Shown here in pieces: positions 10,223 through 23,231 of a stretch of 32,000 nt of DNA (its first letter is position 1; each line of letters opens with the position of its first letter). The position numbers were made by a program, and so were the translations under genes. The DNA is from Geotalea uraniireducens Rf4 (GTDB lineage: Bacteria; Desulfobacterota; Desulfuromonadia; Geobacterales; Geobacteraceae), in NCBI RefSeq assembly GCF_000016745.1, contig NC_009483.1, positions 2,430,001 to 2,462,000 on the forward strand, written 5' to 3'. The notes below the pieces were generated by a model. The model was not told the DNA's origin. It ran no database searches and was given only the letters and a program-made list of their open reading frames with translations.

Positions 10223-10678
10223 ATGTCGGAAAAGTTGATCTGCAACAATAAAAAAGCCTATCACGATTACTTCATCGAGGAGAAGTTCGAAGCGGGCATG
10301 GTGCTCAAGGGCACCGAGGTAAAGTCGCTGCGAATAGGCAAGGCAAACCTGAATGATTCGTTTGCCCTGGTGAAAAACGGCGAGGCTTTTCTGCATAATC
10401 TCCACATTTCCCCCTACGATTTCGGCAACCGTGAAAACCACGATCCTGATCGGATGCGAAAACTCCTCCTCCACAAGAAGGAGATCGGCAAGCTCTTCAG
10501 CATGATCCGGGAACAGGGATACACCGTTGTGCCGCTCCGGCTCTATTTCAAGGACGGCTTGGTCAAGGTCGAAGTGGGGCTGGCCAAAGGTAAAAAACTT
10601 TACGACAAGCGCGAAGACATGAAAAAGAAGGATATGCGCAGGGATGTTGCGGTAGCTTTGAAGGAAAGAAACAGATAG
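10223..10678 (+). CDS. smpB: SsrA-binding protein SmpB
   Basis: [29 protein letters not shown] and the C-terminal basic tail. Directly upstream of tmRNA. Confidence 0.95.
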
Positions 10679-10774: not shown

Positions 10775-11128
10775 GGGGGTGTAAAGGTTTCGACGGGGGT
10801 AATAAGCAAAGGTTGCATGCCGAGGTCCGGGTGGCTCGTTAAACAATCCGGGACGTTTTTAAACGCCGATAATTATAATTACGCTTTAGCAGCTTAATAA
10901 CCTGCTAACGATCTACCGCGCCTCTCCCATGGGTTAGGATAGATCGTCATTTTAGTGGGATAGCCGAGGGGAGGGCCTGTGGTCCCGAGGCGAAACTTTA
11001 GCAGGATCGAAATCCAGATATCCCGGCCAGTGGAGCTTTGGATGGCTAAAATAAAAACTGGTATAAGCATGTAGACGCCTTTCGTGTACGATCTTCGGAC
11101 GCGGGTTCGATTCCCGCCACCTCCACCA
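10775..11128 (+). ncRNA. ssrA: tmRNA (SsrA), tag reading frame encoding ADNYNYALAA
   Basis: 5' GGGGGTGTAAAGGTTTCGACGGGGG and 3' GGACGCGGGTTCGATTCCCGCCACCTCCACCA form the tRNA-Ala-like acceptor/T-arm. Internal frame GCC GAT AAT TAT AAT TAC GCT TTA GCA GCT TAA TAA. Confidence 0.95.
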
Positions 11129-11211: not shown

Positions 11212-11596
11212 ATCGAAAATTATTAGCGGCTGACCTTGCAGGAGGCGGTAAGGTATTCTTTCCCAGCTTTGGTATTGTGGTATACGTTCTGAAGTAAGGC
11301 GTTTTAGTGAGGCAGATTTGCTGATGGCAGGATAGCGGATATGATAAATGGGATGGCTTTTTCTCATTGCAATTTTAAAAGTATACGCCGATAAAAATAT
11401 ATTTAATAGCCTGTTTTTTTAATTTTTAAGTGCTAAATTTAAATCAGCTGGAAGGAAGCAAATACTGCACAAGGAGGGTAATACTATAGACGATACTCCA
11501 CCAGGCAGGTTAAATAAGTGAAAGCTGTAACGACCCGGCGGCAACATTAACCGGAACAGACCTTGAAAAGGTATCCAGGAAGTTAAGAATAAAAGA

Positions 11597-11629
11597 AGCC
11601 CACCTAACATATGGTGGGCTTTTCATTTT
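11597..11629 (+). terminator. Orphan intrinsic-terminator-like hairpin in ORF-free DNA
   Basis: AGCCCACC-TAACATAT-GGTGGGCT followed by TTTCATTTT. No credible ORF lies upstream. Confidence 0.5.
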
Positions 11630-11733
11630 CAAGAGCAGTAGAACAGTTACCTTGCGGCATTATTCAATACATGATTACCTGCCAGATCATGCCTACCTTG
11701 CCACAAAATGATTTCTTGATAAAATAATAGTGT

Positions 11734-11970
11734 AGATAATTGCAGCGTTGTCCGGTTTGGTTTTTGCTTACGTCCCGTAGGGACAGAATACTGGTAGCCG
11801 GGGAATTCATTCCCCGGTCATCCAGGCGAAATATCATCACGTCACGTACGTGACGTGGGGAAATATAGCATCTCATCCGGGGGATGAATCCCCCGGCTAC
11901 ATTCGAACGCCCCTAATGGGGCTTAACAACCTTGATGCACAAACCAAACCGGACAACGCTGAGATAATTG
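11734..11970. mobile_element. MITE-like non-autonomous element: 219 bp, 21-bp perfect terminal inverted repeats, 9-bp target-site duplication
   Basis: TIR-L CAGCGTTGTCCGGTTTGGTTT (11743-11763) is the exact reverse complement of 11941-11961. AGATAATTG flanks both ends (11734-11742 and 11962-11970). The interior has no ORF but has nested hairpins and a 20-bp perfect palindrome, CACGTCACGTACGTGACGTG (11838-11857). Confidence 0.8.
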
Positions 11971-11987
11971 AAATAAAGGTGATTCCA

Positions 11988-12182
11988 ATGCTGATCCGTG
12001 TCCAGTATGATGACGAATCCTTTGGCATGGTCGATGATACGATTCTTGAGACCATGATATCGAGAGATATAATAGTGGGTTTTCAGCGTTCAAGCGGGTG
12101 GGTAAGAATTGGACGTGATGAGGTAAGGGCTCCAAGAGTAGAAAGAAGGCGCAGTGGTGCTCTGATAAATATTTATGTTTAG
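11988..12182 (+). CDS. Small hypothetical protein (64 aa)
   Basis: ATG preceded by AAGGTG. The sequence MLIRVQYDDESFGMVDDTILETMISRDIIVGFQRSSGWVRIGRD resembles a short conserved delta-proteobacterial family I recall only vaguely. The track ORF (11850) starts inside the MITE, so I prefer the internal start. Confidence 0.45.
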   Translation: MLIRVQYDDESFGMVDDTILETMISRDIIVGFQRSSGWVRIGRDEVRAPRVERRRSGALINIYV

Positions 12183-12344
12183 ATAAGCTGCCTGACCATC
12201 CCATACGCACCCATCATCTATAACCCCGAGTAATATAAGTTTTCCAATAATCAGCAACATAAATCCAAATATTTTACGGTAGTTGCCGCATTGTAATGCA
12301 TGGGGCATCTACAGCAACGGGTATTGATTATCATGGAAACCATA

Positions 12345-12388
12345 TCATCCACAATTATTGTGGATAACTCACCTGTAGCTGTGGATAA
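12345..12388. promoter_or_regulatory. Cluster of three DnaA-box sequences
   Basis: TCATCCACA (12345-12353, 8/9 match), TGTGGATAA (12359-12367, 9/9 reverse complement of TTATCCACA) and TGTGGATAA (12380-12388, 9/9). The first two form a 19-bp palindrome. Confidence 0.55.
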
Positions 12389-12761
12389 GGATAAAAAAAT
12401 AACGTATCGTCAAGCACTTTTGCGTTATGCATAACAGATAGGCAGGATATGTAACTACCTGTAATTACTTGTCAATATAAATGTGCATGTGTATACAGTA
12501 TATTTTGAACCATGTAATCCCTGGCGATACAAAAAACAAATGTAAAAAGTGCATAACTACAAGTAACTACTACAAAAAGTAATGAGTTCTAATTATCGGA
12601 AAGGGGTGTTCGTGAACCGATCATGGCGCCGTTGTGTCGTGGCGCTAACCGCCTTTCTCGTTGACTTTAGCCGGTAAAGGGTGTAATAAACTTGCGTAAT
12701 TTTGCGGTGTTATGGGCGAAAGGTGATGGAGTGCGAACGCCGGGGGATAATGAAGTAACGA

Positions 12762-12800
12762 AAGCCGCCATTGTCAGCATGGTGCTGAATGCGGCTTTTG
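12762..12800 (+). terminator. Terminator-like long imperfect hairpin in ORF-free DNA upstream of the HEPN/MNT operon
   Basis: AAGCCGCCATTGTCAGCA-TGG-TGCTGAATGCGGCTT followed by TTTG. The T-run is short. Confidence 0.4.
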
Positions 12801-12890
12801 AGTTTGTGCTGACTGTTTCCCAAACCGTAGATTGATTTATAATGATTTAACCGGAATATACCGGGTTAGGCTTAACCTGGTGGAGGTACT

Positions 12891-13334
12891 ATGATCCTTA
12901 ACACCGATCACCTTAGGCGTTGCATCCGGACAATGCAATCGTCGCTGACCCTGTATGAACAGGCTGAGTCGGAGAGCATCGACCAGGAAGTCTTTCGCAA
13001 CGCCATCGTGAAGGGATACGAGTTGACGCAGGAAACCGCCTTCAAACTGCTGAAAAAGGCCCTCAGGGACTTCGGGCACGGGGCAAAGAAGCTCGATGCT
13101 ACGCCGATTAAGGAGATCTTGCGTCTTGCCGCCACCCATGGCCTAATGACGCTGGAAGAGGTGGAGCGCTGGTTTGCCTACCGCGACAACCGCAACAGCA
13201 CGGCGCACGATTACGGCGAAGGCTTCGCCAAAGAGACTTTGGTCCTGCTTCCCGGGTTCATTGCTGACGTCACCCGGCTGGAAGCCATGCTCCGCGAACG
13301 GTTCGGCGAGAAAGACGACAATGCCCAGGCTTGA
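12891..13334 (+). CDS. HEPN-domain protein, HI0074-type nucleotidyltransferase substrate-binding family (putative HepT-like toxin)
   Basis: Rx4H motif in YRDNRNSTAHDY. All-helical sequence typical of the HI0074 family. Overlaps the downstream MNT gene by 14 nt. Confidence 0.8.
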   Translation: MILNTDHLRRCIRTMQSSLTLYEQAESESIDQEVFRNAIVKGYELTQETAFKLLKKALRDFGHGAKKLDATPIKEILRLAATHGLMTLEEVERWFAYRDNRNSTAHDYGEGFAKETLVLLPGFIADVTRLEAMLRERFGEKDDNAQA

Positions 13335-13656
13335 TGCAGCTGCCCTCCATCTTCTCCCTCGCTACCTGGAGTTGGTGCGTACCGTGCTAAGCCGCCACCT
13401 TCCCCAAGCGGAGGTGTGGGCCTATGGCAGCCGCGTGAACGGCGATTGCCATGAGGCCAGCGACCTCGATCTGGTTGTGCGCAATCCTGCCGCGTTCGAT
13501 GAAGTTCTGCCCGACCTCCCTGACCTCAAGGAAGCCCTCGTGGAGAGCAACCTCCCCATTCGAGTAGATGTGGTAGATTGGGCGCGAATACCTGAATCGT
13601 TCCGCCGGGAGATTGAACGGGCGTATGTGGTGGTGCGTAGGGGCGGGGAAGAGTAA
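13321..13656 (+). CDS. Minimal nucleotidyltransferase (MNT-domain, putative MntA-like antitoxin)
   Basis: YGSRVNGDCHEASDLDLVV (GS-x-n-DxD pol-beta NTase motif). I place the start at ATG 13321 (MPRLDAAALH...) rather than the track's 13174, which overlaps the HEPN gene. Confidence 0.8.
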   Translation: MPRLDAAALHLLPRYLELVRTVLSRHLPQAEVWAYGSRVNGDCHEASDLDLVVRNPAAFDEVLPDLPDLKEALVESNLPIRVDVVDWARIPESFRREIERAYVVVRRGGEE

Positions 13657-13719
13657 ATGGTGGAAAGTGCCGGTGAGAGCCTCATTGACGAAAATCTGAA
13701 AACGGAGCTTTTGCGGTAA

Positions 13720-13983
13720 ATGATGGAAGAGATCATCAGGATAGATACAGCCGACGAACAGGGGAAGCCACCGGAAGAGGAAGGGATAGAAATCCCCCTG
13801 GACAGGATAAACCCGGATACGCTGCGCAACATGCTGTCGGAGTTTGTCACCAGGGAATGGGCGGATGAAGAATGCACCCTGGAAGCGAGGATCGAACAGG
13901 TCCTGGGCCAGTTGCGCGAGCATAAAGCCAAAGTAATGTACGACTTCAGAACGGAAACCTGGAATATTGTCCAGTGCCGATGA
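13720..13983 (+). CDS. YheU/UPF0270-family small protein
   Basis: IPLDRINPDTLRNMLSEFVTREW...LEARIEQVLGQLREHKAKVMYDFRTETWNIV follows the YheU pattern (IPWQ.L...TL.NLI..FVLREGTDYG...L...V..V..QL..G.A.L). Recognised from memory. Confidence 0.65.
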   Translation: MMEEIIRIDTADEQGKPPEEEGIEIPLDRINPDTLRNMLSEFVTREWADEECTLEARIEQVLGQLREHKAKVMYDFRTETWNIVQCR

Positions 13984-14060
13984 CATACCTCGCCGATTTG
14001 ACCCTCCACTTCGTTGATCATCACTGTCCAGCCACTAATTACAAGTAGCGAAAGGTTGAC
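13879..14060 (+). repeat. Island repeat, copy A (yheU 3' end plus ~75 bp downstream core)
   Basis: Aligns by eye with 16627-16809 at roughly 90 percent identity. Its last ~70 bp (CTCGCCGATT...CCACTTCGTTGATCATCACTGTCCAGCCAC.AATTACAAGTAGCGAAAGGTTGAC) also align with 18548-18612. Confidence 0.85.
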
Positions 14061-14085
14061 ACCAGGCGTTTCCAGGGTGTAAATA
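14056..14085 (+). promoter_or_regulatory. Sigma70-type promoter of module copy 1
   Basis: TTGACA-N18-TAAATA, conserved exactly in copy 2. Confidence 0.55.
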
Positions 14086-14161
14086 GAAGGCTGTTTTTAT
14101 GCGATATGGGAGTTTTGGGGATGGGTGAAAAAAAAGCGGAAAAGCGGTCGTGCTGAGGGAT

Positions 14162-14204
14162 AAAAACCGCCTTGGTCAATGATTTCTGACCGGCGGCTTT
14201 TTTT
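14162..14204 (+). terminator. Intrinsic terminator closing a ~115-nt leader/sRNA (module copy 1)
   Basis: CCGCC-TT-GGTCA-ATGATTTC-TGACC-GGCGG followed by CTTTTTTT, about 45 nt upstream of the 60-aa ORF. Confidence 0.7.
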
Positions 14205-14248
14205 CGTATAACAGCGGACATATTGGATAAATTGAAGGAGAAATATAG

Positions 14249-14431
14249 ATGGCAATGACAGTTGAAATCAAAGGCAATAAGCTTTGCATCGAAATTGACC
14301 TGGAAAAGCCGACACCCTCTGCATCCGGGAAAACCCTCGTGGTTGCCAGCACCCGGGGGAATGCCGTTACCACGGCTGAGGTTGACGGTAAGCCGGTGAC
14401 GATAGGGTTGAATGCGTATATCAAGCCGTGA
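14249..14431 (+). CDS. Small conserved hypothetical protein (60 aa), copy 1
   Basis: GAAGGAGA RBS. The protein is identical to the 18979-19161 copy despite 7 nucleotide differences, all synonymous. Confidence 0.8.
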   Translation: MAMTVEIKGNKLCIEIDLEKPTPSASGKTLVVASTRGNAVTTAEVDGKPVTIGLNAYIKP

Positions 14432-14603
14432 GGGGAGCGGTATTGGGGACTGAGAGAATTGTAAAAGTGATTTTTTATGATTCTCATGCTTTTGTGACCC
14501 CCATGTTCTTGGGAGAATTACATTGTCTCTTGAATGTTGATCAAATAGAATGTCAATCGGCTTCATGACTTATTCTGTCACACAAGTGTGATAAGGAGAT
14601 AGA

Positions 14604-15776
14604 ATGGAGATTCCTGCACATTACAGAGGCCGCGAACAGGCACTCATAAAGCATCAACTTCTGGAGACCTATCTCTACAAGCTGTTCATGATTGTTGGAC
14701 AGCACCAGCCAACGATCTCCTATGTCGATTGCTTTGCTGGCCCATGGCAGGTGGCATCGGACGATATGAGCGACACGTCAATAGGTCGCTCACTTTCTAC
14801 CATGAAAAACTGTCTTGAGAGCCTTCGGGATATGGGCCACAATGTCCGTTTCCGTGCCCTGTTCATAGAGAAGGATGTGACTGCATACCACCGGCTCAGA
14901 GGATATCTTGACTCCCTCGACACTCCTGTCGAGACCGAATCATTCCATGGTGAGTTCTACAATGTTCGCCACAAAATCCTCGATTGGTGTGGCCCAGCAG
15001 GATTTACCTTTTTCTTTGTCGATCCACTCGGCTGGAAGGGCATCGTCGAGGTTCCCACGCTGGAACCGTTTCTTCAGCGGCCTAACTCCGAATTCCTCAT
15101 AAACTTCATGTTTGAATTTATTCTCCGAGCGCATGACATACGCAAGCATGAGAAGGACATGATCGCAATTTTCGGCCAGGTTCCCCAGACAGATGATATG
15201 ACACCCGACCAGAAGGAATCCTACTTGGTTAATCTCTACCGGGCGAATCTGAAAAGAGTCCAACCGTTGCGGGGTGGTAAACCACGCTCCGTTACAGTAC
15301 CGATCCAGCGTCCTGGCAAGAATCGAACTCTCTACCATCTCGTCTACCTGACCCGTCATCCTCTCGGTATTGTCAAGTTCATGGAAGCATCGGAGCCCCT
15401 GGACTTCGTTCAGAAAGCTGTCCGCATACAGGCGAAGCATGATAAAAAGATTGAGACGACAGGACAATGTGAACTTTTTGGTGCCCTCGAAAATGTCAAG
15501 ATAGAGCAAGGAAACGTCCCTATCTCCGTGGTCAAGGAATACTGGCTCAGACAGCTTACTTCTCAACCACAATTATTCGGCATAGACAAACTCGCCGACA
15601 TGCTCGAAGAAACAGGCTGGTTCGAAAGCAATTTTCAAGAAGCCTTCCATGAACTTCAGAGGGAAGGTAAAGCAAAGAACCTCGATGATGCAGAAAAATC
15701 CAAGCGTCGGAAGAAGTTCGTTCATTTCGACGCGAACCGCAATTGTGGCGAGCGACTGGCAAAGGTGATACGATGA
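14604..15776 (+). CDS. tcmP: Three-Cys-motif partner protein TcmP-like (390 aa), function unknown
   Basis: The N-terminal pattern REQALIKHQLLETYL...YVDCFAGPW...FFFVDPLGW matches my recollection of the TIGR04474 family, which always neighbours DUF5131. AAGGAGA RBS. A 14-bp palindrome, TCACACAAGTGTGA, lies just upstream. Confidence 0.7.
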   Translation: MEIPAHYRGREQALIKHQLLETYLYKLFMIVGQHQPTISYVDCFAGPWQVASDDMSDTSIGRSLSTMKNCLESLRDMGHNVRFRALFIEKDVTAYHRLRGYLDSLDTPVETESFHGEFYNVRHKILDWCGPAGFTFFFVDPLGWKGIVEVPTLEPFLQRPNSEFLINFMFEFILRAHDIRKHEKDMIAIFGQVPQTDDMTPDQKESYLVNLYRANLKRVQPLRGGKPRSVTVPIQRPGKNRTLYHLVYLTRHPLGIVKFMEASEPLDFVQKAVRIQAKHDKKIETTGQCELFGALENVKIEQGNVPISVVKEYWLRQLTSQPQLFGIDKLADMLEETGWFESNFQEAFHELQREGKAKNLDDAEKSKRRKKFVHFDANRNCGERLAKVIR

Positions 15777-16549
15777 GCACACAAACATCAATAGAATGGA
15801 CCGAGCAGACCTGGAACCCCGCTGTGGGATGCAGCAAGGTGTCTCCCGGCTGTGCCAACTGCTATGCTGAGGCGATGGCCAAGCGCCTGCAGGCTATGAG
15901 GGTGAAGGGCTACGAAAACGGCTTTGCCCTGACCCTGTTACCCAATCGGCTGGAAGAGCCGCTGAAGCGGACCAAATCAACCATCTACTTCGTCAACTCC
16001 ATGAGCGATCTTTTTCATGAAGAGATCCCAGACGACTACATACGACAAGTGTTTGACGTGATCCGCCGAGCGCCGCAGCATACCTTTCAGGTGCTGACCA
16101 AGCGAGCTGAGCGGATGGCTGAATTTTTCCGGAGTTATGAACCACCAAGAAATGCTTGGCTGGGGGTGACGGTGGAGGATCGGAAATTCGGAGTTCCCCG
16201 TCTGGACTGGCTTCGCCAAGTGCCGGCACACATTCGATTTGTCTCCGTGGAACCGCTGCTGGAGGATTTGGGGAAGCTTGATTTGACCGGGATTCACTGG
16301 GTCATCGTCGGCGGAGAATCGGGGCCGAAGGCACGCCCGATGCAGCAGGAGTGGGTGCTGAACATCAAACGCCAATGCGACGAGCAATGTTCCGCCTTCT
16401 TCTTCAAACAGTGGGGAGGATGGGGCGTTGATGGTAAGAAGCGGGCGAAGAAGGAAAATGGGCGGTTGTTGCAGGGTAGGACGTGGGACGCGGTGCCGTT
16501 AGCATCGACACCCCCCAATGTTCAACAGTTTGAAATTGCAGGCTCGTGA
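15773..16549 (+). CDS. DUF5131 (phage Gp37/Gp68 family) protein with N-terminal three-Cys motif
   Basis: IEWTEQTWNPAVGCSKVSPGCANCYA (C-x6-C-x2-C), FVSVEPLLEDL, WVIVGGESGP and FFFKQWGG. I start it at ATG 15773 (MSTQTS...), which overlaps the tcmP stop as ATGA. Confidence 0.85.
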   Translation: MSTQTSIEWTEQTWNPAVGCSKVSPGCANCYAEAMAKRLQAMRVKGYENGFALTLLPNRLEEPLKRTKSTIYFVNSMSDLFHEEIPDDYIRQVFDVIRRAPQHTFQVLTKRAERMAEFFRSYEPPRNAWLGVTVEDRKFGVPRLDWLRQVPAHIRFVSVEPLLEDLGKLDLTGIHWVIVGGESGPKARPMQQEWVLNIKRQCDEQCSAFFFKQWGGWGVDGKKRAKKENGRLLQGRTWDAVPLASTPPNVQQFEIAGS

Positions 16550-16626
16550 AGTGGGTGGTAGATGCCTATTTGAGATTTTGTAAAATGTGTAGCTCCGGTA
16601 CTTATGTTTTCCGCTTATGTTTTCCG

Positions 16627-16731
16627 CTGGAAACGAGGATCGAACAGGTTCTGCACCAGCTGCGCGAACGTAAAGCAAAAGTAATGTATGACTTCAGAAC
16701 GGAAACCTGGAATATTGTCCAATGCCGATGA
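16627..16731 (+). pseudogene. Orphan 3' fragment of a second yheU-like gene (last 34 codons)
   Basis: Encodes LETRIEQVLHQLRERKAKVMYDFRTETWNIVQCR, versus LEARIEQVLGQLREHKAKVMYDFRTETWNIVQCR in the intact gene. No matching N-terminal part is present; the track ORF 16546-16731 begins in unrelated sequence. Confidence 0.8.
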
Positions 16732-16809
16732 CCATACCTCACCGATTTGACCATCCACTTCGTTGATCATCACTATCCAGCCACCAATTACAAATAGCGA
16801 AAGGTTGAC
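16627..16809 (+). repeat. Island repeat, copy B (diverged yheU 3' fragment plus core)
   Basis: See copy A. It diverges from copies A and C right after AAAGGTTGAC, so it lacks the -10 element and the leader. Confidence 0.85.
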
Positions 16810-16851
16810 CGATCACGTCAACTCCATCTGGACCATTCGATGGTTGTTAAC

Positions 16852-16889
16852 AATTACAGCTTGATTTTACTGTAATTGAGCCATATAAT
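16852..16889 (+). promoter_or_regulatory. hipBA promoter with overlapping inverted-repeat operator
   Basis: TTGATT-N17-TATAAT (16861-16889). The 8-bp perfect inverted repeat AATTACAG-N10-CTGTAATT (16852-16877) spans the -35 region. Confidence 0.6.
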
Positions 16890-16917
16890 ACCCGTAAAAC
16901 ATTGCAAGGGGTATTTT

Positions 16918-17265
16918 ATGACCCGAAACAGTTTGAGTAAAGAAGGGTTGCCGACCCCAGCGCAGCAGGCGGTCGAGGTGTTGGGAAGAAACATCCGGAT
17001 CGCCCGCAAACGCCGGGGCTGGAGCCTGGACGAGATGGCCGGGAGCATGCTGGTAACTCGCAAGACCCTCTCCCGACTGGAGAACGGCGATCCGGCAGTG
17101 GGGTTGTCCGTGTTGGCCGCGGCCCTGCATGTGCTGAACATGACGGACGATCTGAAGAAGGTTGCAACCCCGGAGAGCGATTCGGTGGGGATGTTTTACG
17201 AAAAACAGCGCCTGCCCCGGCGGGTCGGGAAAAAGAAGACTTCTGCTGACGATCTTGATTTCTAA
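16918..17265 (+). CDS. hipB: XRE-family HTH antitoxin (HipB-like)
   Basis: GRNIRIARKRRGWSLDEMAGSMLVTRKTLSRLENGD is a Cro/C1 HTH. Immediately upstream of hipA. I use ATG 16918 (MTRNSL...). Confidence 0.8.
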   Translation: MTRNSLSKEGLPTPAQQAVEVLGRNIRIARKRRGWSLDEMAGSMLVTRKTLSRLENGDPAVGLSVLAAALHVLNMTDDLKKVATPESDSVGMFYEKQRLPRRVGKKKTSADDLDF

Positions 17266-17267
17266 GG

Positions 17268-18506
17268 ATGCCTGTCTTGGCCCGAGAACACAAAGTATAT
17301 GTCTTCATTTACCTTCCCGGCGAGACCACGGCGGTTCCGGCTGGGCTGTTCACCCATTACCCCGATGACGGCATCGGCCGTTTTGCCTATGGCCGCCGTT
17401 ACCTGGAGCGCCCTAACGCCCTGCCGGTGGACCCTGTGGCGCTGCCTTTGGGTGGCATGCCCAGGGATGTCACCACCAATGGCGGTCTGTACGGCGCCTT
17501 CCGTGACTCGTCTCCCGATTACTGGGGGCGGCTGGTTGTTGCCGCTGAAGCACGCATGCCGCCCGAAGCCCTGGATGAAACGGATTATCTCCTGCGCGCC
17601 AATGCATCGAGGATCGGTTGCCTCGATTTCCGGGCTTCGCTGGAGCAGGGTGAACCCGTGGTCGGACCGCCCGGTTTTCAATCGCTGGCAGAACTTCTGG
17701 ATGCCGCTTCGGATCTGGCAGCCGGAAAACAGGTCAGACAGGATCTGCTGCGGCTTCTGGAGCAGGGTTCGAGCGTCGGCGGCGCCCGGCCCAAGTGTAC
17801 CGTAGAGTTGGATGATGCCCTCTGGATAGCCAAATTCCCGGCCAAGGACGATACGATCAACTTCCCCAAGGTCGAGTACGCCACCATGACCCTGGCGGGG
17901 AGGTGCGGGATCAACGTGCCGACAATGCGTGTCGTGGCTATCGGCGGCAGGGATGTGCTGCTGGTGAAACGCTTCGACCGGCACAAGTCTGGCGGCGGGT
18001 ATCAACGGTTCGGTTTCCTGAGCGCCCTGTCACTCATGGAATGGGACGAACGGGACCGCACAGAGTGGAGCTATCCGGCCCTGGCGGACAGGATGCGCGC
18101 AACCATTCTGGCCCAGCGGGCACAAACCGGGGAACTCTTTCGCCGGATGCTGTTTAACGTGCTGTGCCGGAATACGGACGACCATCCCCGCAACCACGGC
18201 TTCCTGTGGGGCGAACGGGCAACGGCCCTTTCCCCGGCCTATGATATTGTGCCGTCATTGGCCCGGCCCGGCGTAACCACTGAATTTTCCCTTTCCATGT
18301 CCCTGGGCGAAAGGGGCAGGGAAGCGACCCTGGCCAATGCCGTGAGTATGCATGCCCGCTTCGGGCTGACACGGAGTGAAGCGGAACAGGTCATCGACGA
18401 CATGCGGGCCTGTGTGGCGAAGTGGGAGCAACTCTTCATCACCTGCGGGGTTTCCGAGGCGGACAGGGATGCTGTCCGGGCTTCGTTTGCCGTGGCGACG
18501 TCGTAG
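17268..18506 (+). CDS. hipA: HipA-family serine/threonine kinase toxin
   Basis: GSSVGGARPKCTV, WIAKFP, LLVKRFDR and CRNTDDHPRNHGFLW are canonical HipA N- and C-domain motifs. Confidence 0.9.
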   Translation: MPVLAREHKVYVFIYLPGETTAVPAGLFTHYPDDGIGRFAYGRRYLERPNALPVDPVALPLGGMPRDVTTNGGLYGAFRDSSPDYWGRLVVAAEARMPPEALDETDYLLRANASRIGCLDFRASLEQGEPVVGPPGFQSLAELLDAASDLAAGKQVRQDLLRLLEQGSSVGGARPKCTVELDDALWIAKFPAKDDTINFPKVEYATMTLAGRCGINVPTMRVVAIGGRDVLLVKRFDRHKSGGGYQRFGFLSALSLMEWDERDRTEWSYPALADRMRATILAQRAQTGELFRRMLFNVLCRNTDDHPRNHGFLWGERATALSPAYDIVPSLARPGVTTEFSLSMSLGERGREATLANAVSMHARFGLTRSEAEQVIDDMRACVAKWEQLFITCGVSEADRDAVRASFAVATS

Positions 18507-18607
18507 TGGCGACCGGTCGTTCGCTCCGACATCATTCGATGGCATAACTCGCCGATTCCACTTCGTTGATCATCACTGTCCAGCCACCGATTACAAGTAG
18601 CGAAAGG

Positions 18608-18637
18608 TTGACACCAGGCGTTTCCAGGGTGTAAATA
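18608..18637 (+). promoter_or_regulatory. Sigma70-type promoter of module copy 2
   Basis: Identical TTGACA-N18-TAAATA to copy 1. Confidence 0.55.
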
Positions 18638-18713
18638 GAAGGCTGTTTTTATGTGATATGGGAGTTTTGGGGATGGGTGAAAAAAAAGCGGAAAAGCGGT
18701 CGTGCTGAGGGAT

Positions 18714-18756
18714 AAAAGCCGCCTTGGTCAATGATTTCTGACCGGCGGCTTTTTTT
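18714..18756 (+). terminator. Intrinsic terminator closing the leader (module copy 2)
   Basis: AGCCGCC-TT-GGTCA-ATGATTTC-TGACC-GGCGGCT plus TTTTTT. The single A-to-G difference from copy 1 extends the stem. Confidence 0.7.
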
Positions 18757-18776
18757 ACTGTAACAGCGGACATATC

Positions 18777-18971
18777 GGATAAATTGAAGGAGAGCTCACT
18801 CTCAAGCTGACCAACTTCAATTATACCTATTTATACTTGAAACTAGATATAAATGTGTATAAATTGCTCGCCATTTCGTGTGTCCGGCGTGCGGGGCTGC
18901 CGTGCCTATTGAGGTTTGGCGGGGCGGTGAGCTCTGTGGTAACTGTTTTTTTCAGGATAAATTGAAGGAGA
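18777..18971 (+). repeat. 17-bp direct duplication (GGATAAATTGAAGGAGA) flanking a 161-bp insert between leader and 60-aa ORF
   Basis: Direct repeats at 18777-18793 and 18955-18971. The insert starts GCTCAC and ends near GTGAGCTC (short inverted repeat) and contains AT-rich promoter-like sequence (TTGAAA...TATAAA). The insert is absent from module copy 1. Confidence 0.75.
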
Positions 18972-18978
18972 ACTCCCC

Positions 18979-19161
18979 ATGGCAATGACAGTTGAAATCA
19001 AAGGCAATAAGCTTTGCATCGAAATTGACCTGGAAAAGCCGACACCCTCTGCATCCGGGAAAACCCTCGTGGTTGCCAGCACCAGGGGGAATGCCGTTAC
19101 TACGGCCGAGGTTGATGGCAAACCGGTGACGATAGGGTTGAATGCGTATATTAAGCCGTGA
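18979..19161 (+). CDS. Small conserved hypothetical protein (60 aa), copy 2
   Basis: Same protein as 14249-14431. GAAGGAGA RBS. Confidence 0.8.
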   Translation: MAMTVEIKGNKLCIEIDLEKPTPSASGKTLVVASTRGNAVTTAEVDGKPVTIGLNAYIKP

Positions 19162-19290
19162 AGGGAGAGGTGTTGAGGGCTGAAGGAATTTAAAATTGAT
19201 TTTTCAAGAACTGGCCTTCCTTGCCCCTGCTTATTCTTCTCAGATTTTTGTAAAATTTAGGATGACTATATTGTTCAGGAGAGCATCTGC

Positions 19291-20811
19291 GTGTTGACTG
19301 GTGAAAACAAGGCAAAGATTGACAAGATATGGGATGCGTTCTGGACGGGTGGGATTTCCGATTCCCTGCGGGTGATCGAGCAGATGTCGTACCTGCTGTT
19401 TATCAAGCGGCTGGATGACCTCCACACGGCAAAGGAGAAGAAGGCCAACCGGCTGGGCAAGCCGATCGAGGAGCCGATCTTCGGGCCGAAGCAGGATCAT
19501 CTGCGCTGGTCGCGCTTCCGGGAGTTCGAGGCGGGGGAGATGTTCCGCGTGGTGAGCCAGGAGGTCTTCCCCTTCATCAAGAATCTGCACGGCAACGAGG
19601 AGAGCGCCTACGCCCGGCACATGAAGGACGCTATCTTCATGATCCCCACCCCGAGCCTCCTGGAGCGGGTGGTGGAGCAGATCAGCCAGGTGCCGATGGA
19701 AGACCGGGACACCAAGGGGGACCTGTACGAGTACATGCTCTCCAAGCTGACTACTGCCGGCAGAAACGGCCAGTTCCGCACCCCTCGCCATATCATCAAG
19801 ATGATGGTGGAGCTGATGCAGCCCCGGCCCGACGATATCATCTGCGACCCGGCCTGCGGCACGGCGGGCTTCCTGGTGGCGGCCGGAGAATACCTGCGCG
19901 AGCATCACGGCGATTTGTTCCATAATGAAAAGCTGAAGAAGCACTTCAACGAAAAGCTCTTCAACGGCTTCGACTTCGACTCCACCATGCTCCGCATCGC
20001 CAGCATGAACATGATGCTGCACGGTGTGGAGAACCCGGCCATCGAGGCGCGGGATTCGCTTTCCAGTGCTGCCGACATAGCAGATGCATATACCCTGATT
20101 TTAGCCAATCCTCCCTTCAAGGGGTCGCTGGATGAGGATACCGTCGCCAAGGACCTGCTGCGTACGGTCAAGACCAAGAAGACCGAGCTGCTGTTCATCG
20201 CTCTGATGCTGCGGCTGTTGAAGCCGGGCGGGCGCTGTGCGGTGATTGTTCCGGACGGGGTGCTGTTCGGCTCCAGTAAGGCGCACCTGGACCTGCGCAA
20301 GATACTGGTGGACGGCCACAAGCTGGAGGCGATGATCTCCATGCCCTCCGGTGTGTTCCGCCCCTATGCGGGGGTCTCCACCGGAATACTGATCTTCACC
20401 AAGACCAACTCCGGCGGCACGGATCATGTCTGGTTTTACGACATGCAGGCCGATGGCTTCTCGCTGGATGACAAGCGCAATCCGGTGGAGCAGAACGATA
20501 TTCCCGATGTAGTAGAGTCGTGGCTTCGGCTCCGCTCAGCCACCGGGCTTCTCTCAACTGCCGGGCAGGTCGAAGGTGGTACGCTGAGCGGAGTCGAAGC
20601 GGGACGTACCGCCAAATCCTTCCTCGTCTCGGTGCAGGAGATTCGCGACAACAAGTACGACCTCTCCATCAACCGTTACAAGAAAGTGGAGCATGAGGAG
20701 GTGGCCTACGAGCCGCCGCAGGTTATCATTGCCCGGTTGGAGGCGCTGGAGCGGGAGATTGCCGGGGAGTTGGCGGAGTTGGCCCTTCGACTCCGCTCAG
20801 GGAACGATTAA
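19291..20811 (+). CDS. hsdM: Type I restriction-modification system methyltransferase subunit HsdM (N6-adenine), carrying an in-frame repeat insertion
   Basis: N-terminal KIWDAFWTGGI...IEQMSYLLFIKRLDD, FRTPRHII, DPACGTAGFL (motif I) and ANPPFKG (motif IV). GTG start with a GGAGAG RBS. Confidence 0.92.
   Translation: MLTGENKAKIDKIWDAFWTGGISDSLRVIEQMSYLLFIKRLDDLHTAKEKKANRLGKPIEEPIFGPKQDHLRWSRFREFEAGEMFRVVSQEVFPFIKNLHGNEESAYARHMKDAIFMIPTPSLLERVVEQISQVPMEDRDTKGDLYEYMLSKLTTAGRNGQFRTPRHIIKMMVELMQPRPDDIICDPACGTAGFLVAAGEYLREHHGDLFHNEKLKKHFNEKLFNGFDFDSTMLRIASMNMMLHGVENPAIEARDSLSSAADIADAYTLILANPPFKGSLDEDTVAKDLLRTVKTKKTELLFIALMLRLLKPGGRCAVIVPDGVLFGSSKAHLDLRKILVDGHKLEAMISMPSGVFRPYAGVSTGILIFTKTNSGGTDHVWFYDMQADGFSLDDKRNPVEQNDIPDVVESWLRLRSATGLLSTAGQVEGGTLSGVEAGRTAKSFLVSVQEIRDNKYDLSINRYKKVEHEEVAYEPPQVIIARLEALEREIAGELAELALRLRSGND
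20523..20600. repeat. Palindromic repeat element U1 (78 bp) inside the hsdM coding sequence, in frame
   Basis: GCTTCGGCTCCGCTCAGCCACCG ... GGTGGTACGCTGAGCGGAGTCGAAGC. It translates as LRLRSATGLLSTAGQVEGGTLSGVEA (26 codons). Confidence 0.8.
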
Positions 20812-21290
20812 GGTCTGGCTTCGGCTCCGCTCAGCCACCGGGCGTCTCCGTTTGCCGGTGCGGTGGTTTTCGGTGGCTGAGCGGAGTCGAAGCCAGGTTT
20901 AGGGGAATATCCAGCATGCCCTACATGTACATCCTCGAATGCGCGGACGGCAGCTACTACACGGGAAGCACCAAGGATCTGGATCGCCGTCTTTGGGAGC
21001 ATCAGAACGGACTGGGCGCGAATCATACAGCCAGGAGGCTTCCCGTAAAACTTGTTTACTGTGAGGAATGCGACCGCATCGATGACGCGTTCTATCGTGA
21101 AAAACAGGTTCAGGGATGGAGCCGAAAAAAGAAAGAGGCTTTGATGGCAAGTGATACAAATCAGCTTCATCGGTTGGCGGTTTGTCGGAATGAAAGCCAT
21201 TGTGCTGGCTTCGGCTCCGCTCAGCCAGCGGACACCGACACCGCTCAATTAAAAGATAACCTTGCCTGTTCCCTGAGCGGAGTCGAAGGG
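20783..21290. mobile_element. GIY-YIG gene cassette bounded by 20-bp perfect inverted repeats, at the hsdM/hsdS junction
   Basis: CCCTTCGACTCCGCTCAGGG (20783-20802) is the exact reverse complement of CCCTGAGCGGAGTCGAAGGG (21271-21290). Inside are palindromic unit U2 (20817-20894), the GIY-YIG ORF and a forward half-site (21207-21230). Confidence 0.7.
20817..20894. repeat. Palindromic repeat element U2 (78 bp), intergenic
   Basis: GGCTTCGGCTCCGCTCAGCCACCG-spacer-CGGTGGCTGAGCGGAGTCGAAGCC, the same family as U1. Confidence 0.85.
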
Positions 21291-21314
21291 AACAAAAAGG
21301 GGATGGTGGAATGA
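20916..21314 (+). CDS. Small GIY-YIG nuclease family protein (core ~85 aa; the tail reads through repeat sequence)
   Basis: YMYILECADGSYYTGSTKDLDRRLWEHQ...ANHTARRLP.KLVY...REKQVQGWSRKKK are the GIY, YIG, R, H and E catalytic-core elements. The C-terminal GFGSAQPA and SLSGVEGN are translations of the repeat family. The stop overlaps the hsdS ATG (ATGA). Confidence 0.8.
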   Translation: MPYMYILECADGSYYTGSTKDLDRRLWEHQNGLGANHTARRLPVKLVYCEECDRIDDAFYREKQVQGWSRKKKEALMASDTNQLHRLAVCRNESHCAGFGSAQPADTDTAQLKDNLACSLSGVEGNKKGMVE

Positions 21315-22492
21315 AGTACTCTTATGTTCCACTAGGTGGACTTGTAACAATATCCGGTGGTGGTACGCCGAGTCGGAATAATGATGCTTACTGGGGTGGC
21401 AGCATTCCATGGGCTACGGTAAAAGACCTTAAAGACACCATGCTTTCCGGCACGCAAGAAACAATTACTCCCGAAGGACTTAGAGATAGTGCATCGAACC
21501 TGATTCCTGCGGGCAGTGTGATCGTTGCAACACGCATGGGTCTTGGTAAGGTTGCAATCAACACGATGGATGTAACCATCAATCAGGATTTGAAAGCGTT
21601 TTCATGTGGCGCTGATCTTGAACCTCGTTATTTGCTGTATTTCCTTCTCGCGAATGCTTCACATCTCGATTCAATGGGAAAAGGAGCTACCGTCAAGGGC
21701 ATTACGCTTGATGTTCTTAAAGATCTTTCCGTCCCTCTCCCCCCACTCCCCGAACAAAAGCGCATCGCTGCCATCCTCGACAAGGCTGATTCTATCCGGC
21801 GAAAGCGGCAGGAGGCGGTACGGTTGACTGAGGAACTGCTGCGCTCGGTGTTTCTGGATATGTTTGGTGATCCGGAAAGTAATAACTGGCCGATGATGAC
21901 CATAGCCGGAGTTGCGCTGCCAGGAGTTAGCGCAATTCGGACCGGGCCATTTGGCAGTCAACTCCTACACAGCGAGTTCGTCGATGAAGGCGTTGCAGTT
22001 CTGGGGATTGATAATGCTGTAGCTAATGAATTCCGTTGGAACGAACGCCGCTATATATCTGAGGCAAAATATCGCGAATTATCACGATATACCGTAAGAC
22101 CAGGCGACGTCATTATCACTATTATGGGAACATGCGGTCGGTGTGCAGTTGTACCGGACGATATACCAGTTGCAATCAATACAAAACATCTTTGTTGCAT
22201 CACGCTTGACCAAACAAAATGCCTGCCGGTTTTTGTTCATGCATATTTTCTACAACATTGCATTGCCCGACGTTACCTGGAGAAAACAGCTAAAGGTGCA
22301 ATAATGGACGGCCTGAACATGGGTATTATCAAGGATATGCCAATTCCTATACCCCCTCTAAAGCTCCAGGAAAAATTCGCATGTTCTATTGCAGCTATTG
22401 AAAAATTAAGACACACGACTCGGTCAACCTTGGCAGAACAAGACACCCTCTTTCACTCTCTCCTGCAACGCGCCTTCAATGGGGCGTTGTAA
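21311..22492 (+). CDS. hsdS: Type I R-M specificity subunit HsdS (two target-recognition domains)
   Basis: Two conserved spacer helices, PLPPLPEQKRIAAILDKADSIRRKRQEA...LLRSVFLDMFG and IPIPPLKLQEKFACSIAAIEKL...LFHSLLQRAFNG, separated by variable TRDs. Confidence 0.9.
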   Translation: MKYSYVPLGGLVTISGGGTPSRNNDAYWGGSIPWATVKDLKDTMLSGTQETITPEGLRDSASNLIPAGSVIVATRMGLGKVAINTMDVTINQDLKAFSCGADLEPRYLLYFLLANASHLDSMGKGATVKGITLDVLKDLSVPLPPLPEQKRIAAILDKADSIRRKRQEAVRLTEELLRSVFLDMFGDPESNNWPMMTIAGVALPGVSAIRTGPFGSQLLHSEFVDEGVAVLGIDNAVANEFRWNERRYISEAKYRELSRYTVRPGDVIITIMGTCGRCAVVPDDIPVAINTKHLCCITLDQTKCLPVFVHAYFLQHCIARRYLEKTAKGAIMDGLNMGIIKDMPIPIPPLKLQEKFACSIAAIEKLRHTTRSTLAEQDTLFHSLLQRAFNGAL

Positions 22493-22497
22493 ACCGA

Positions 22498-22633
22498 GCT
22501 TCGACTCCGCTCAGCCACCGCGCTTCGACTCCGCTCAGCCACCGCGCTTCGACAACACTCAACACAATTCCGCTCTCTTCACTCTGTGGCTCAGCTTCCA
22601 AATGTTGCCCGGTCCCTGAGCGGAGTCGAAGGG
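22498..22633. repeat. Repeat cluster U4: 24-bp unit GCTTCGACTCCGCTCAGCCACCGC in 2 tandem copies plus an 8-nt partial third, then the inverted half-site
   Basis: Units at 22498-22521 and 22522-22545, partial at 22546-22553. Inverted CCCTGAGCGGAGTCGAAGGG at 22614-22633. Confidence 0.85.
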
Positions 22634-22725
22634 CCGCTCAGCCGATGTTAAATTTTGGACAGACAGAAACAATTTGACCTTTTCATGTCCATAACGTACA
22701 ATTTGTACAAATGGAGGTTGTCATC

Positions 22726-22977
22726 ATGACCAAAATATCAACAGCAGAAGCCCGCAATGATTTCGCCGATGTCATCAACCGGGCATCGTTCGGCAAGGAA
22801 CGCTTTGTCCTGACGCGGCGAGGTAAAAAACTGGTCGCGATTGTACCGGTTGAAGACCTGGAGCTTCTCGAAGAGATGGAAGACCGAATGGACGTTGAAG
22901 CGGCCAAGGCGGCCCTGGCAGAATCCGATGAGCGGGTTTCGTATGAGGATTTGCGTCGTGAGCTGGGGCTTAAATGA
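22726..22977 (+). CDS. Phd/YefM-family antitoxin
   Basis: ISTAEARNDFADVINRASFGKERFVLTRRGKKLVAIVPVEDLE. GGAGG RBS. Palindrome GTACA-ATT-TGTAC upstream. The stop overlaps the toxin start (ATGA). Confidence 0.85.
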   Translation: MTKISTAEARNDFADVINRASFGKERFVLTRRGKKLVAIVPVEDLELLEEMEDRMDVEAAKAALAESDERVSYEDLRRELGLK

Positions 22978-23231
22978 CCTATCGGATTGAGTTGACCAAG
23001 ACGGCGGAACGGGATTTATTGGCTGTTCCCAAACCAGTTTTGAAACGGCTGGATGCTTGCATCCTCGGACTGGCAGACGATCCGCTGCCGCCGGGAGTAA
23101 AGAAGCTCAAGAACAGTGACGGCCTGTACCGTGTGAGAGTGAGCGATTATCGCATTATCTACCGCATTGAGCAGGAAATTTTGACTGTCCTGGTTGTCAA
23201 GATAGGCCACCGGCGGGAAGTTTATCGTTAG
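22974..23231 (+). CDS. RelE/ParE-family toxin
   Basis: Has the fold pattern typical of the 85-aa RelE/ParE family: IELTKTAERDL...L..DP.PPG.KKL....GLYRVRVSDYRIIYRIE.E.L.V.VVKIGHRREVY. Confidence 0.85.
   Translation: MTYRIELTKTAERDLLAVPKPVLKRLDACILGLADDPLPPGVKKLKNSDGLYRVRVSDYRIIYRIEQEILTVLVVKIGHRREVYR

Follow-up and report, generated by a model that had tools for sequence, protein, structure and literature searches.

A TcmP-DUF5131 gene pair in a strain-variable slot of Geotalea uraniireducens as a candidate module for radical-SAM modification of DNA

What does a two-gene unit of tcmP and a DUF5131 gene do in a bacterial genome, and is DNA its target? The question is raised by a window of 32,000 nucleotides from Geotalea uraniireducens Rf4 (NC_009483.1, positions 2,430,001 to 2,462,000), in which the pair lies upstream of a type I restriction-modification (R-M) operon. 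A preliminary description of the window regarded the pair as an uncharacterised defence candidate made up of an Fe-S enzyme and a methyltransferase-like partner. The pair is indeed such a candidate, but the idea is not new, as it is already catalogued in PADLOC as PDC-M30. The description also held that neither protein has an assigned biochemical function, and a literature search found no experiment on any TcmP/DUF5131 family member.

The two open reading frames, of 390 aa and 258 aa, are coupled as first described: the start codon of ORF2 (ATG, 15773-15775) overlaps the stop codon of ORF1 (15774-15776) in a 4-bp ATGA at 15773-15776, and AAGGTGA sits 5 nt upstream of the ORF2 start. Among 80 related loci, most of those holding both genes keep the 4-bp overlap, and the pairing of tcmP with DUF5131 is therefore not due to chance. 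DUF5131 is adjacent to tcmP or within 3 kb of it in essentially every related tcmP locus on a long enough contig. Upstream of the pair, a strong ribosome-binding site (RBS) and a 14-bp palindrome had been reported. The RBS is present (AAGGAGA, 14593-14599), but the palindrome is not a perfect 14-mer, the sequence TCACAC-AA-GTGTGA at 14578-14591 having 6-nt arms around a non-palindromic AA centre. It was seen only in the window and in one related locus, L013, and was rejected as a conserved operator. An inverted repeat, TGAC-N7-GTCA, lies at 14566-14580, and about 12 loci of the Geobacter type have TGAC-N7-GTC(A/G) and a GGAGAT RBS ahead of tcmP. These include L013, whose TcmP is only 56% identical to that of the window and yet whose leader signals are kept. 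A sigma-70-like match just upstream of the conserved leader (Table 1) may perhaps be the pair's own promoter.

Table 1. Features of the locus, with positions counted from the first nucleotide of the window
Feature	Position	Strand	Remarks
Left flanking direct repeat	13879..14060	+	last 106 nt of UPF0270 gene + 77-nt element; repeat families D5, D7
orf60	14249..14431	+	60-aa ORF heading the slot; context only
Insertion relative to related contig L091	14441..27161		~12.7 kb; tcmP-DUF5131, hipBA, second leader/orf60 copy, type I R-M locus
Sigma-70-like promoter match TTGTCT-17-TAGAAT	14523..14551	+	consensus scan only, 9/12 matches
Conserved tcmP leader	14566..14603	+	candidate operator + Shine-Dalgarno
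tcmP (ORF1)	14604..15776	+	390 aa; three-Cys-motif partner protein
DUF5131 (Gp37/Gp68) gene (ORF2)	15773..16549	+	258 aa; radical-SAM-superfamily protein
Right flanking direct repeat	16627..16809	+	UPF0270 3' remnant + 77-nt element; right edge of tcmP-DUF5131 cargo

The proposed family assignments are upheld by HMM searches, with both matches above cut-off. TcmP matches TIGR04474 over residues 12-262 at 112.8 bits (curated cut-off 53), and NCBI gives the name TcmP to the identical protein. The ORF2 product matches PF07505 at 360.7 bits (gathering score 28.9) over profile positions 1-243 of 243, and also matches phrog_2045. Its match to TIGR04471 (radical SAM mobile pair protein A, equivalog) is below cut-off at 92.6 bits against 355, and by this score the DUF5131 protein is a distant relative of TIGR04471 that lies outside that family. 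With the PADLOC models, the DUF5131 protein matches PDC-M30B at 5.1e-111 and TcmP matches PDC-M30A at 4.8e-13 (46.9 bits), the two genes being adjacent on one strand. The likeness to PDC-M30 consists of the TcmP and DUF5131 composition and of the R-M/defence context, but the PDC-M30A match is weak, and the window TcmP accordingly belongs to a divergent subfamily. PDC-M30 is a phage-defence candidate that was derived through guilt-by-embedding, its genes having been found within BREX, DISARM and type I R-M loci, and is among 145 PDCs given as untested candidates (Payne et al., bioRxiv 10.1101/2024.01.29.577857). In a search of the literature, papers naming PDC-M30 merely list it. The window pair does not lie inside an R-M operon but forms a cargo of its own, 2.7 kb upstream of one. 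It is a typical example of the mobile TcmP/DUF5131 pair (TIGR04474 and PF07505, PDC-M30).

The motif blocks attributed to the two proteins are all found in place. ORF1 contains YVDCFAGPW and FFFVDPLGW, and ORF2 carries GCSKVSPGCANCYA, in which C20, C27 and C30 form C-x6-C-x2-C, as well as VSVEPLLEDL, WVIVGGESGP and FFFKQWGG. The three cysteines are invariant among 33 sequences, with the spacing CX6CX2C instead of the canonical radical-SAM CX3CX2C. Also invariant in the DUF5131 alignment are G180-G181-E182, a GGE motif of the SAM-binding type, and a fourth cysteine, Cys202. In the AF2 model of DUF5131 (pLDDT 81.7), beta and alpha elements alternate, and the six top PDB matches of the model are all spore photoproduct lyase (probability 0.99-1.0), with lipoyl synthase (LipA), AprD4 and viperin at lower ranks. 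These matches to radical-SAM enzymes are weak (E 1.6e-3 to 8e-2), and the structural matches of TcmP and DUF5131 are weak overall (E about 1e-3 to 1e-4, TM 0.3-0.5). DUF5131 is listed as a radical-SAM subgroup, and SFLD/RadicalSAM.org assigns it to Megacluster-5-2, the neighbouring group 5-3 being that of spore photoproduct lyase (PMC9477430). The invariant motifs, the predicted fold and this listing fit an Fe-S radical-type enzyme, in agreement with the preliminary description. DUF5131 resembles spore photoproduct lyase (PDB 4fhc and related) in its putative three-Cys [4Fe-4S] site and its GGE-type SAM motif, but identity is only 11-12%, the protein is about 80 residues shorter, and the lyase has a CX3CX2C cluster motif. 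Unlike the lyase, DUF5131 is distributed patchily on mobile DNA, is paired with TcmP and has no known photoproduct link.

TcmP residues ~1-265 are modelled as a class I methyltransferase-like Rossmann domain with the motifs D42-C-F-A-G46-P-W48, E89, G116-E-F118 and D140-P-L-G143-W144. The C-terminal part, residues 280-362, is a GMT-like winged helix (PF22560, E 7.5e-9, 36.4 bits versus a cut-off of 27), which a Pfam scan found in 16/16 diverse TcmP-family members. When the AF2 model (pLDDT 85.9) was searched with Foldseek, all 50 top PDB matches were class I SAM methyltransferases, as were most of the top viral matches, and the similarity is weak but uniform (E down to 5e-5, TM 0.45-0.53 on target). 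The best PDB match is TrmR, a tRNA methyltransferase, in complex with tRNA; small-molecule O-methyltransferases and CmoA come next. Residues like those of motifs I, II, III and IV are conserved across the columns of the TcmP family. The suggestion of a methyltransferase-like partner holds for the fold but not for sequence models: TcmP matches no Pfam methyltransferase model even at a permissive E<=5, and a scan of 16 diverse TcmP-family proteins for recurrent weak methyltransferase matches gave GMT-wHTH only. One family member gave a non-significant RsmD-family match (E 0.14). Sequence searches against the PDB with both proteins and a TcmP profile returned nothing usable, a BepC match at E 0.006 being set aside as a low-information stretch, and a literature search for the meaning of "GMT" in PF22560 and for a published function found no functional study. 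In these models the methyltransferase kinship of TcmP is visible at the level of the fold only.

SAM binding by TcmP is uncertain because motif I reads FAGPW rather than GxGxG, the last (second) glycine being replaced; in the paralogue TcmP2 and in phage gp42, motif I reads FAGGG and FAGRG. The amino-methyltransferases with (D/N/S)PP(Y/F/W) comprise gamma-class N6-adenine DNA methyltransferases (HsdM) and RsmD-type m2G RNA methyltransferases. TcmP is like these enzymes in its class I fold, in the placing of motif I before motif IV, in a D-x-F-A-G motif I, in an acidic beta-2 end, in G-[ED]-F after beta-3 and in D-P-x-G-[WY] after beta-4. It differs from them in the replaced second glycine of FAGPW, in having DPxGW and not DPPY, and in the missing sequence-model match. 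The two proteins of the pair also differ in conservation, as mean identity over 72 loci is 75.5% for DUF5131 versus 52.0% for TcmP, and it changes abruptly where the two genes meet. At the DNA level the hypervariable central part of tcmP cannot be aligned, between flanks of 80% identity. In this respect the fast-diverging TcmP resembles a specificity subunit.

As had been noted, the pair sits between TA modules, with HepT/MNT at 12891-13656 on one side and HipB/HipA at 16876-18506 on the other, and is bounded by cassette repeats. The two flanking direct repeats (Table 1) are 91-94% identical, a 30-mer of the repeat has three copies in the window against zero expected, and a remnant ORF at 16546-16731 shares its terminal MYDFRTETWNIVQCR with UPF0270. 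A leader of ~460 nt with the 60-aa ORF is common to the tcmP slot and the hsdM locus of the type I R-M system, also as described, but this module is no part of the system. By tblastn, orf60 was found in the window only; neither it nor its leader is present in any of the 80 related loci, and the identical orf60 protein elsewhere heads many unrelated cargos, among them SRAP, a Gabija-like ATPase together with UvrD, HigBA and nitroreductase/YjbQ. For these reasons orf60 was rejected as a third component. The slot is a general variable-cargo slot and not one for defence alone, and non-defence cargo enters it too. The related contig L091 is collinear with the window over 11495-14440 and resumes at 27162-29707, with 87-93% nucleotide identity. 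This close relative lacks the intervening sequence, a presence/absence polymorphism, and the pair is therefore cargo in a strain-variable slot near ssrA, which in Geotalea uraniireducens lies 3 kb downstream of that gene. Adjacency to tRNA or tmRNA was rejected as a general integration site, as a tRNA is within 10 kb in 8/60 related loci and a tmRNA in 0/60. As to an integron-type cassette (attC/IntI), the window ORFs that were scanned gave no integrase-like Pfam match.

By a pattern search, only 368 out of 185,579 species genomes have the pair, the hosts being mostly anaerobes, and a profile search gave about 2,600 TcmP clusters at 50% identity. The suspected association with R-M and defence genes is borne out. 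Type I/III R-M, DrmD or DUF1016 genes lie within 10 kb in at least 13 of the 38 loci with full flanks, a raw count that is a tblastn lower bound. In 11-12 loci the genes follow one order on the same strand: DrmD-like SNF2, TcmP, DUF5131, type III Mod, (DUF1016), Res. The 132 flanking ORFs were scanned as one "alignment", for which the PADLOC summary was swamped by redundant methyltransferase models and yielded no count for single proteins, and the Pfam counts were usable. Hsd genes of type I R-M adjoin the pair in some loci and in the window, and on a Rhizobium plasmid the pair adjoins N6-methylase, Eco57I-like and GIY-YIG genes; in S. meliloti, tcmP and the defence gene hna have been listed as forming a putative unit. 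Housekeeping neighbours are present at many related loci, and some loci carry the pair without any R-M neighbour. Type I/III R-M and DISARM share with the pair its genomic setting, and TcmP is, like HsdS, a variable partner beside a conserved enzyme. The pair nevertheless differs from these systems, for it lacks nuclease and helicase domains and is matched by no model of a canonical DNA methyltransferase. PADLOC and Pfam R-M models and nuclease domains gave no match in TcmP or DUF5131, and the window holds no nuclease dedicated to the pair. Judged by its sequences, the pair falls outside the definition of an R-M system as a recognised DNA methyltransferase plus a nuclease.

The best explanation, put forward tentatively and at somewhat below even probability, is that the pair is a module for the radical-SAM modification of DNA that serves in conflicts between self and non-self. 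The pair would act on DNA, with TcmP as the fast-diversifying specificity part and DUF5131 as the conserved catalytic part. Site recognition and the presentation of a flipped base would fall to TcmP, through its winged helix and its amino-methyltransferase-like pocket (D-P-x-G-W), and DUF5131 would use [4Fe-4S] and SAM to generate a 5'-deoxyadenosyl radical that chemically alters the presented base. The outcome would be a non-canonical DNA mark for self/non-self discrimination, either alongside neighbouring restriction modules or in a protective role. Action on DNA is known for just two radical-SAM enzymes, spore photoproduct lyase and gp53 of phage M6, which is lyase-like (PMC8989533), and gp53 is the sole precedent for radical-SAM DNA modification. 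This lyase-like isomerase takes part in thymidine hypermodification, on DNA bases, post-replication and in a conflict setting (PMC8989533). It differs from DUF5131 in its canonical CX3CX2C motif, and its pathway partners, a 5-hmdU kinase, an aGPT-Pplase and a PLP enzyme, are all missing from the vicinity of the TcmP-DUF5131 pair. In its boldest form, which is doubtful, the proposal would make the pair the first bacterial system to use radical-SAM chemistry directly on DNA for self/non-self discrimination, either by installing a novel base mark, carbon-linked or non-canonical in some other way, or by damaging unmarked DNA, with TcmP as a swappable target-recognition subunit whose centre diversifies like HsdS.

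The preliminary description offered a self-mark, an anti-restriction modification and restriction as possible roles; sequence cannot choose between them, and DNA repair is a further live option. Counter-defence or self-protection, an unlikely role, would have the pair, or the solo DUF5131 of phages, modify the element's own DNA against host restriction, the bacterial copies being plasmid, ICE or prophage passengers. DUF5131 occurs in 180 phage records, mostly of lytic or temperate actinophages, among early/DNA-metabolism genes (e.g. DNA methylase, WhiB, DprA-like and DnaQ-like). Of the 17 plasmids that carry TcmP, 13 are conjugative or mobilizable, and on an ICE-type plasmid of P. aeruginosa the genes for a helicase, for TcmP and for another member of the TcmP family adjoin conjugation genes. 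M6 gp53 likewise offers a precedent for phage DNA hypermodification by a lyase-like radical-SAM enzyme (PMC8989533). About 175 of the 180 phage records have DUF5131 without TcmP; the enzyme therefore has no need of TcmP and may play a different role in phages, which counts against the best explanation above. Host or prophage defence, however, better fits the chromosomal pairs inside same-strand R-M operons and the pairs in prophage immunity regions, where lysogen-expressed genes are placed (in Gordonia prophages, between integrase and immunity repressor). The likeness of fast-diverging TcmP to a specificity subunit also argues against counter-defence, and no recognisable plasmid or phage surrounds the window pair.

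If the pair instead served DNA repair, which is quite unlikely, DUF5131 would reverse a lesion by radical chemistry like that of spore photoproduct lyase, and TcmP would provide lesion recognition and base flipping, both being damage-induced. The lyase is the best structural match of DUF5131 and shares its RadicalSAM.org megacluster, solo phage DUF5131 genes lie among replication and repair genes, and radical-SAM chemistry is usable in the mostly anaerobic hosts. In 16 loci an S24/LexA-like gene lies immediately upstream or is divergently oriented (among the 38 loci with full flanks, 11 have S24 within 10 kb), and SOS-box-like CGAACGATCGTTCG palindromes (CGAAC-N4-GTTCG) were seen between the S24 gene and tcmP in 5 loci, an arrangement that fits a DNA-damage response as well as defence. 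S24 repressors, however, generally also control prophage and ICE genes; repair genes are rarely as patchy as a pair that is so sparse among species genomes and missing in a close relative, and they do not normally occur in R-M operons or with a hypervariable partner. A very unlikely alternative dispenses with DNA as the target: the pair would produce or alter a nucleotide or RNA, for instance an antiviral nucleotide analogue of the viperin kind, or a modification in tRNA or rRNA that is methylated by TcmP. Viperin and other small-molecule radical-SAM enzymes among the lower-ranked DUF5131 matches, the TrmR, O-methyltransferase and CmoA matches of TcmP and the marginal RsmD-family match all point in this direction, but the E-value for spore photoproduct lyase is more than ten-fold better than that for viperin. 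The winged helix is moreover universal in the TcmP family, the neighbours are DNA-acting (Mod/Res, Hsd, SNF2, GIY-YIG), and a chain terminator would be poisonous to the replication of the very phages that carry solo DUF5131.

The window instance adds little beyond the PDC-M30 catalogue entry, and its value lies in clues at the level of the family. The TcmP-DUF5131 unit is only 2 kb and easy to test. Radical-SAM action on DNA is rare, being represented by two enzymes, spore photoproduct lyase and phage M6 gp53 (PMC8989533). Here a widespread lyase-like enzyme is joined to a methyltransferase-shaped, winged-helix partner in R-M operons, plasmids, ICEs and prophage immunity regions, and this combination of chemistry and placement makes TcmP-DUF5131 well suited to a search for novel DNA chemistry among the conflict systems of bacteria.

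Both open reading frames of the preliminary description are present in the window with their ATGA overlap, every peptide motif quoted for them occurs in the translations, and a ribosome-binding site precedes the first; the claimed upstream palindrome reads TCACAC-AA-GTGTGA. Profile searches place ORF1 (390 aa) in the three-Cys-motif partner family TcmP (TIGR04474, 112.8 bits against a cut-off of 53) and match ORF2 (258 aa) end to end to PF07505/DUF5131 (360.7 bits), as had been proposed. ORF1 carries a PF22560 'GMT-like wHTH' domain at its C-terminus (residues 280-362), and ORF2 also matches phrog_2045. The PADLOC models PDC-M30A and PDC-M30B are matched, one by each protein, and ORF2 additionally matches PDC-M41B. 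The PDC series comprises 145 'phage defence candidates', all untested, drawn from genes that lie inside BREX, DISARM and type I R-M loci (bioRxiv 10.1101/2024.01.29.577857). Papers naming PDC-M30 merely list it, and literature searches for DUF5131/PF07505/COG4422 and TcmP found no functional study; the pair was therefore correctly called uncharacterised, whereas the idea of a defence role is not new, given PDC-M30. The earlier observation is confirmed and its interpretation partly supported. The window holds an ordinary representative of a mobile gene pair that is catalogued yet uncharacterised.

Features of the island and its surroundings (window positions)
Feature	Position	Remarks
smpB	10223-10678	
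tmRNA gene	10775-11128	tag peptide ADNYNYALAA
HepT/MNT	12891-13656	
UPF0270	13720-13983	
Repeat copies	13879-14060, 16627-16809	
orf60, first copy	14249-14431	
Promoter-like site of the pair	14523-14551	probable, from sequence
Claimed palindrome	14578-14591	
Ribosome-binding site	14593-14599	AAGGAGA
TcmP-DUF5131 pair	14604-16549	
ORF1 (tcmP)	14604-15776	
ORF2 (DUF5131)	15773-16549	
UPF0270 3' remnant	16546-16731	
HipBA	16876-18506	
Insertion in second orf60 leader	18794-18971	178 nt
orf60, second copy	18979-19161	
HsdM, GIY-YIG, HsdS, DUF4145, HsdR-like gene	19291-25822	
REP-like-looking element	20523-22561	five copies, ~24-40 nt, GCTTCGGCTCCGCTCAGCCACCG
GIY-YIG nuclease ORF	20916-21314	
DUF4145 ORF	23269-24228	
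Tandem array	26613-26916	9/18-nt units, ATCGGACTGATCGGTCGG
Nitroreductase/YjbQ genes	27398-28492	
Tandem array	29423-29542	seven copies of CCACCGCCACGAACT, 15-nt spacing

A variable island of mosaic GC content begins just downstream of smpB-tmRNA, a position like that of ssrA-linked genomic islands; no integrase was found among the window ORFs scanned. The pair lies between two TA modules, HepT/MNT and HipBA, as repeat-bounded cargo, in agreement with the preliminary description. A metagenomic contig from a close relative (L091) is collinear with window positions 11495-14440 and resumes at 27162, and the intervening 12.7 kb (14441-27161) is therefore a strain-specific insertion. This block, without counterpart in L091, contains the pair, HipBA and the type I R-M locus; hardly any sequence separates orf60 from the nitroreductase/YjbQ genes in L091. 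The conserved tcmP leader contains TGAC-N7-GTCA. Amid hsdM, hsdS and the HsdR-like gene, the R-M locus embeds the GIY-YIG and DUF4145 ORFs, the kind of genes mined by the PADLOC candidate approach. The five copies of GCTTCGGCTCCGCTCAGCCACCG are distributed over the ends of hsdM and hsdS and the interior of the GIY-YIG ORF, and the overlapping ORFs holding the CCACCGCCACGAACT array have no Pfam match.

The slot is headed by orf60, a 60-aa ORF, and is not a defence-only slot: the identical protein elsewhere heads nitroreductase/YjbQ, HigBA, SRAP, a Gabija-like OLD ATPase with UvrD, AAA ATPases and AlbA_2. Each time (loci L083-L092 and the window) a different cargo follows it, and no other TcmP locus has it. 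Between its two copies in the window there are seven synonymous and no non-synonymous changes, and the identical protein occurs in at least 56 collection blocks, encoded by DNA just 80-92% identical, in a look-up by exact protein identity that is biased towards zero amino-acid change. No match was found in Pfam, NCBIfam, PADLOC or PHROGs. It is a genuine gene, very strongly constrained, that may serve as a marker or regulator of a hotspot for variable cargo in Geobacteraceae. The insertion in the second leader, relative to the first, is flanked by duplicated GGATAAATTGAAGGAGA.

The TcmP sequence matched no solved structure. Every one of the 50 top PDB matches to its predicted model (pLDDT 85.9) is a class I SAM methyltransferase, with TrmR, COMT-type enzymes and CmoA as examples, and so are most top viral matches (E down to 5e-5, TM ~0.5 on target). 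Across TcmP, its paralogue TcmP2 and the TcmP-like gp42 of Gordonia phage, the aligned residues K16, H17, Y23, L24, D42, G46, L98, L102, D140, G143, E163, L246 and L351 are invariant. The motifs are D-x-F-A-G-(P/G/R)-(W/G) after beta-1, E89 at the end of beta-2, G-[ED]-F after beta-3 and D-[PQ]-x-G-[WY] after beta-4, a layout shared with amino-methyltransferases with a DPPY-type pocket; unlike these, the window subfamily reads FAGPW at motif I. A class I methyltransferase fold is supported by the model, so the label 'methyltransferase-like' holds for fold, whereas no Pfam methyltransferase model matched even at E<=5. Many loci have two TcmP-family genes with one DUF5131 (L056, L057, L063, L071, L074, L002, L031, L047 and plasmid L093); TcmP2 (~425-465 aa) combines a canonical FAGGG motif I with the GMT winged helix, and loci of two genes, the window's among them, retain the FAGPW type alone. 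A 479-aa metagenome homologue (P0068) has ~90 extra N-terminal residues resembling the start of a type III/BREX-type DNA methyltransferase (cf. Mod of L008), probably a gene call that ran on from a truncated mod gene next to it.

DUF5131 is a radical-SAM subgroup, Megacluster-5-2, in RadicalSAM.org/SFLD, neighbouring spore photoproduct lyase (5-3) and MJ0683-like proteins (5-1) (PMC9477430). C20, C27, C30, C202 and G180-G181-E182 are invariant among 33 proteins in two clades ~50% apart. The best six PDB matches to the AlphaFold model (pLDDT 81.7) are spore photoproduct lyase entries, with weak E values (1.6e-3 to 5.4e-3), probability 0.99-1.0 and TM 0.41-0.51 on query, followed by lipoyl synthase, AprD4 and viperin. 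These predicted-model scores agree with the independent sequence-network grouping. The earlier assignment to a radical-type Fe-S enzyme is thereby favoured. According to PMC8989533, no radical-SAM enzymes other than spore photoproduct lyase and gp53 of phage M6, itself lyase-like, had been linked to DNA, and DNA is therefore the leading candidate substrate.

The two genes diverge unequally, with mean identities to the window proteins of 75.5% for DUF5131 and 52.0% for TcmP (72 loci). At ten loci (L013, L014, L024, L026, L028, L029, L031, L038, L045, L048) DUF5131 is 85-92% and TcmP 50-56% identical, and the step coincides exactly with the gene junction. DNA of L013, L026 and L038 matches the window over the leader and about the first 48 tcmP codons; the match picks up once more near codon 325 and runs to the end of DUF5131, at ~75-80% identity, and the intervening tcmP centre is almost wholly unalignable. 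A hypervariable-centred TcmP beside a conserved DUF5131 would fit the pattern of a specificity subunit. Fragments of ~80-100 nt like the DUF5131 3' end (L013 9348-9446 and 14299-14375; L014 3121-3205) repeat both upstream and downstream of the pair, resembling the UPF0270 3'-end repeats flanking the window pair, and may reflect cassette turnover via recombination at gene 3' ends.

Relatives occur in 368 of 185,579 species genomes, by patterns specific to this subfamily, and 80 loci were surveyed. Most loci at >=50% identity have tcmP then DUF5131 with a 4-bp overlap; Burkholderiales-type loci read S24 peptidase, DUF5131, TcmP2, TcmP, and 11-12 loci read DrmD-like SNF2, TcmP, DUF5131, type III Mod, (DUF1016), Res. 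A type I/III R-M, DrmD or DUF1016 gene lies within 10 kb in at least 13 of 38 loci, a lower bound counted on loci with 5-kb flanks. The commonest Pfam families among 132 immediate neighbours are N6_N4_Mtase (9), ResIII (6), DUF1016_N (5) and SNF2 (4), many of the remainder being housekeeping. Perfect CGAAC-N4-GTTCG-type palindromes (CCGAACGATCGTTCGG) lie 50-60 nt upstream of tcmP at five loci, of which L060, L061 and L072 have them separating tcmP from a divergent S24/LexA-like gene, and L053 and L058 have no S24 gene called nearby; by sequence they look like SOS-type operators of a dedicated cleavable repressor.

On a Rhizobium plasmid the pair adjoins N6-methylase, Eco57I-like and GIY-YIG genes, a conjugative P. 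aeruginosa plasmid carries a DEAD helicase, TcmP and another member of the TcmP family beside ICE transfer genes, and in S. meliloti tcmP and the defence gene hna are listed together as a putative unit (PMC12445080). DUF5131 is present in 180 of 50,697 phage records, just five of which have a TcmP-like gene; all five are Gordonia phages, with the pair between integrase and immunity repressor. Among rival readings, counter-defence for mobile elements is unlikely, lyase-like DNA repair under LexA-like control is rather improbable, and a substrate other than DNA is very unlikely; some probability is also reserved for explanations outside those weighed. The best-supported reading, though a tentative one, is that the pair could be a DNA-directed radical-SAM modification module, in which DUF5131 would modify DNA, TcmP would act as its recognition and base-presenting partner, and the two would work in self/non-self conflicts.
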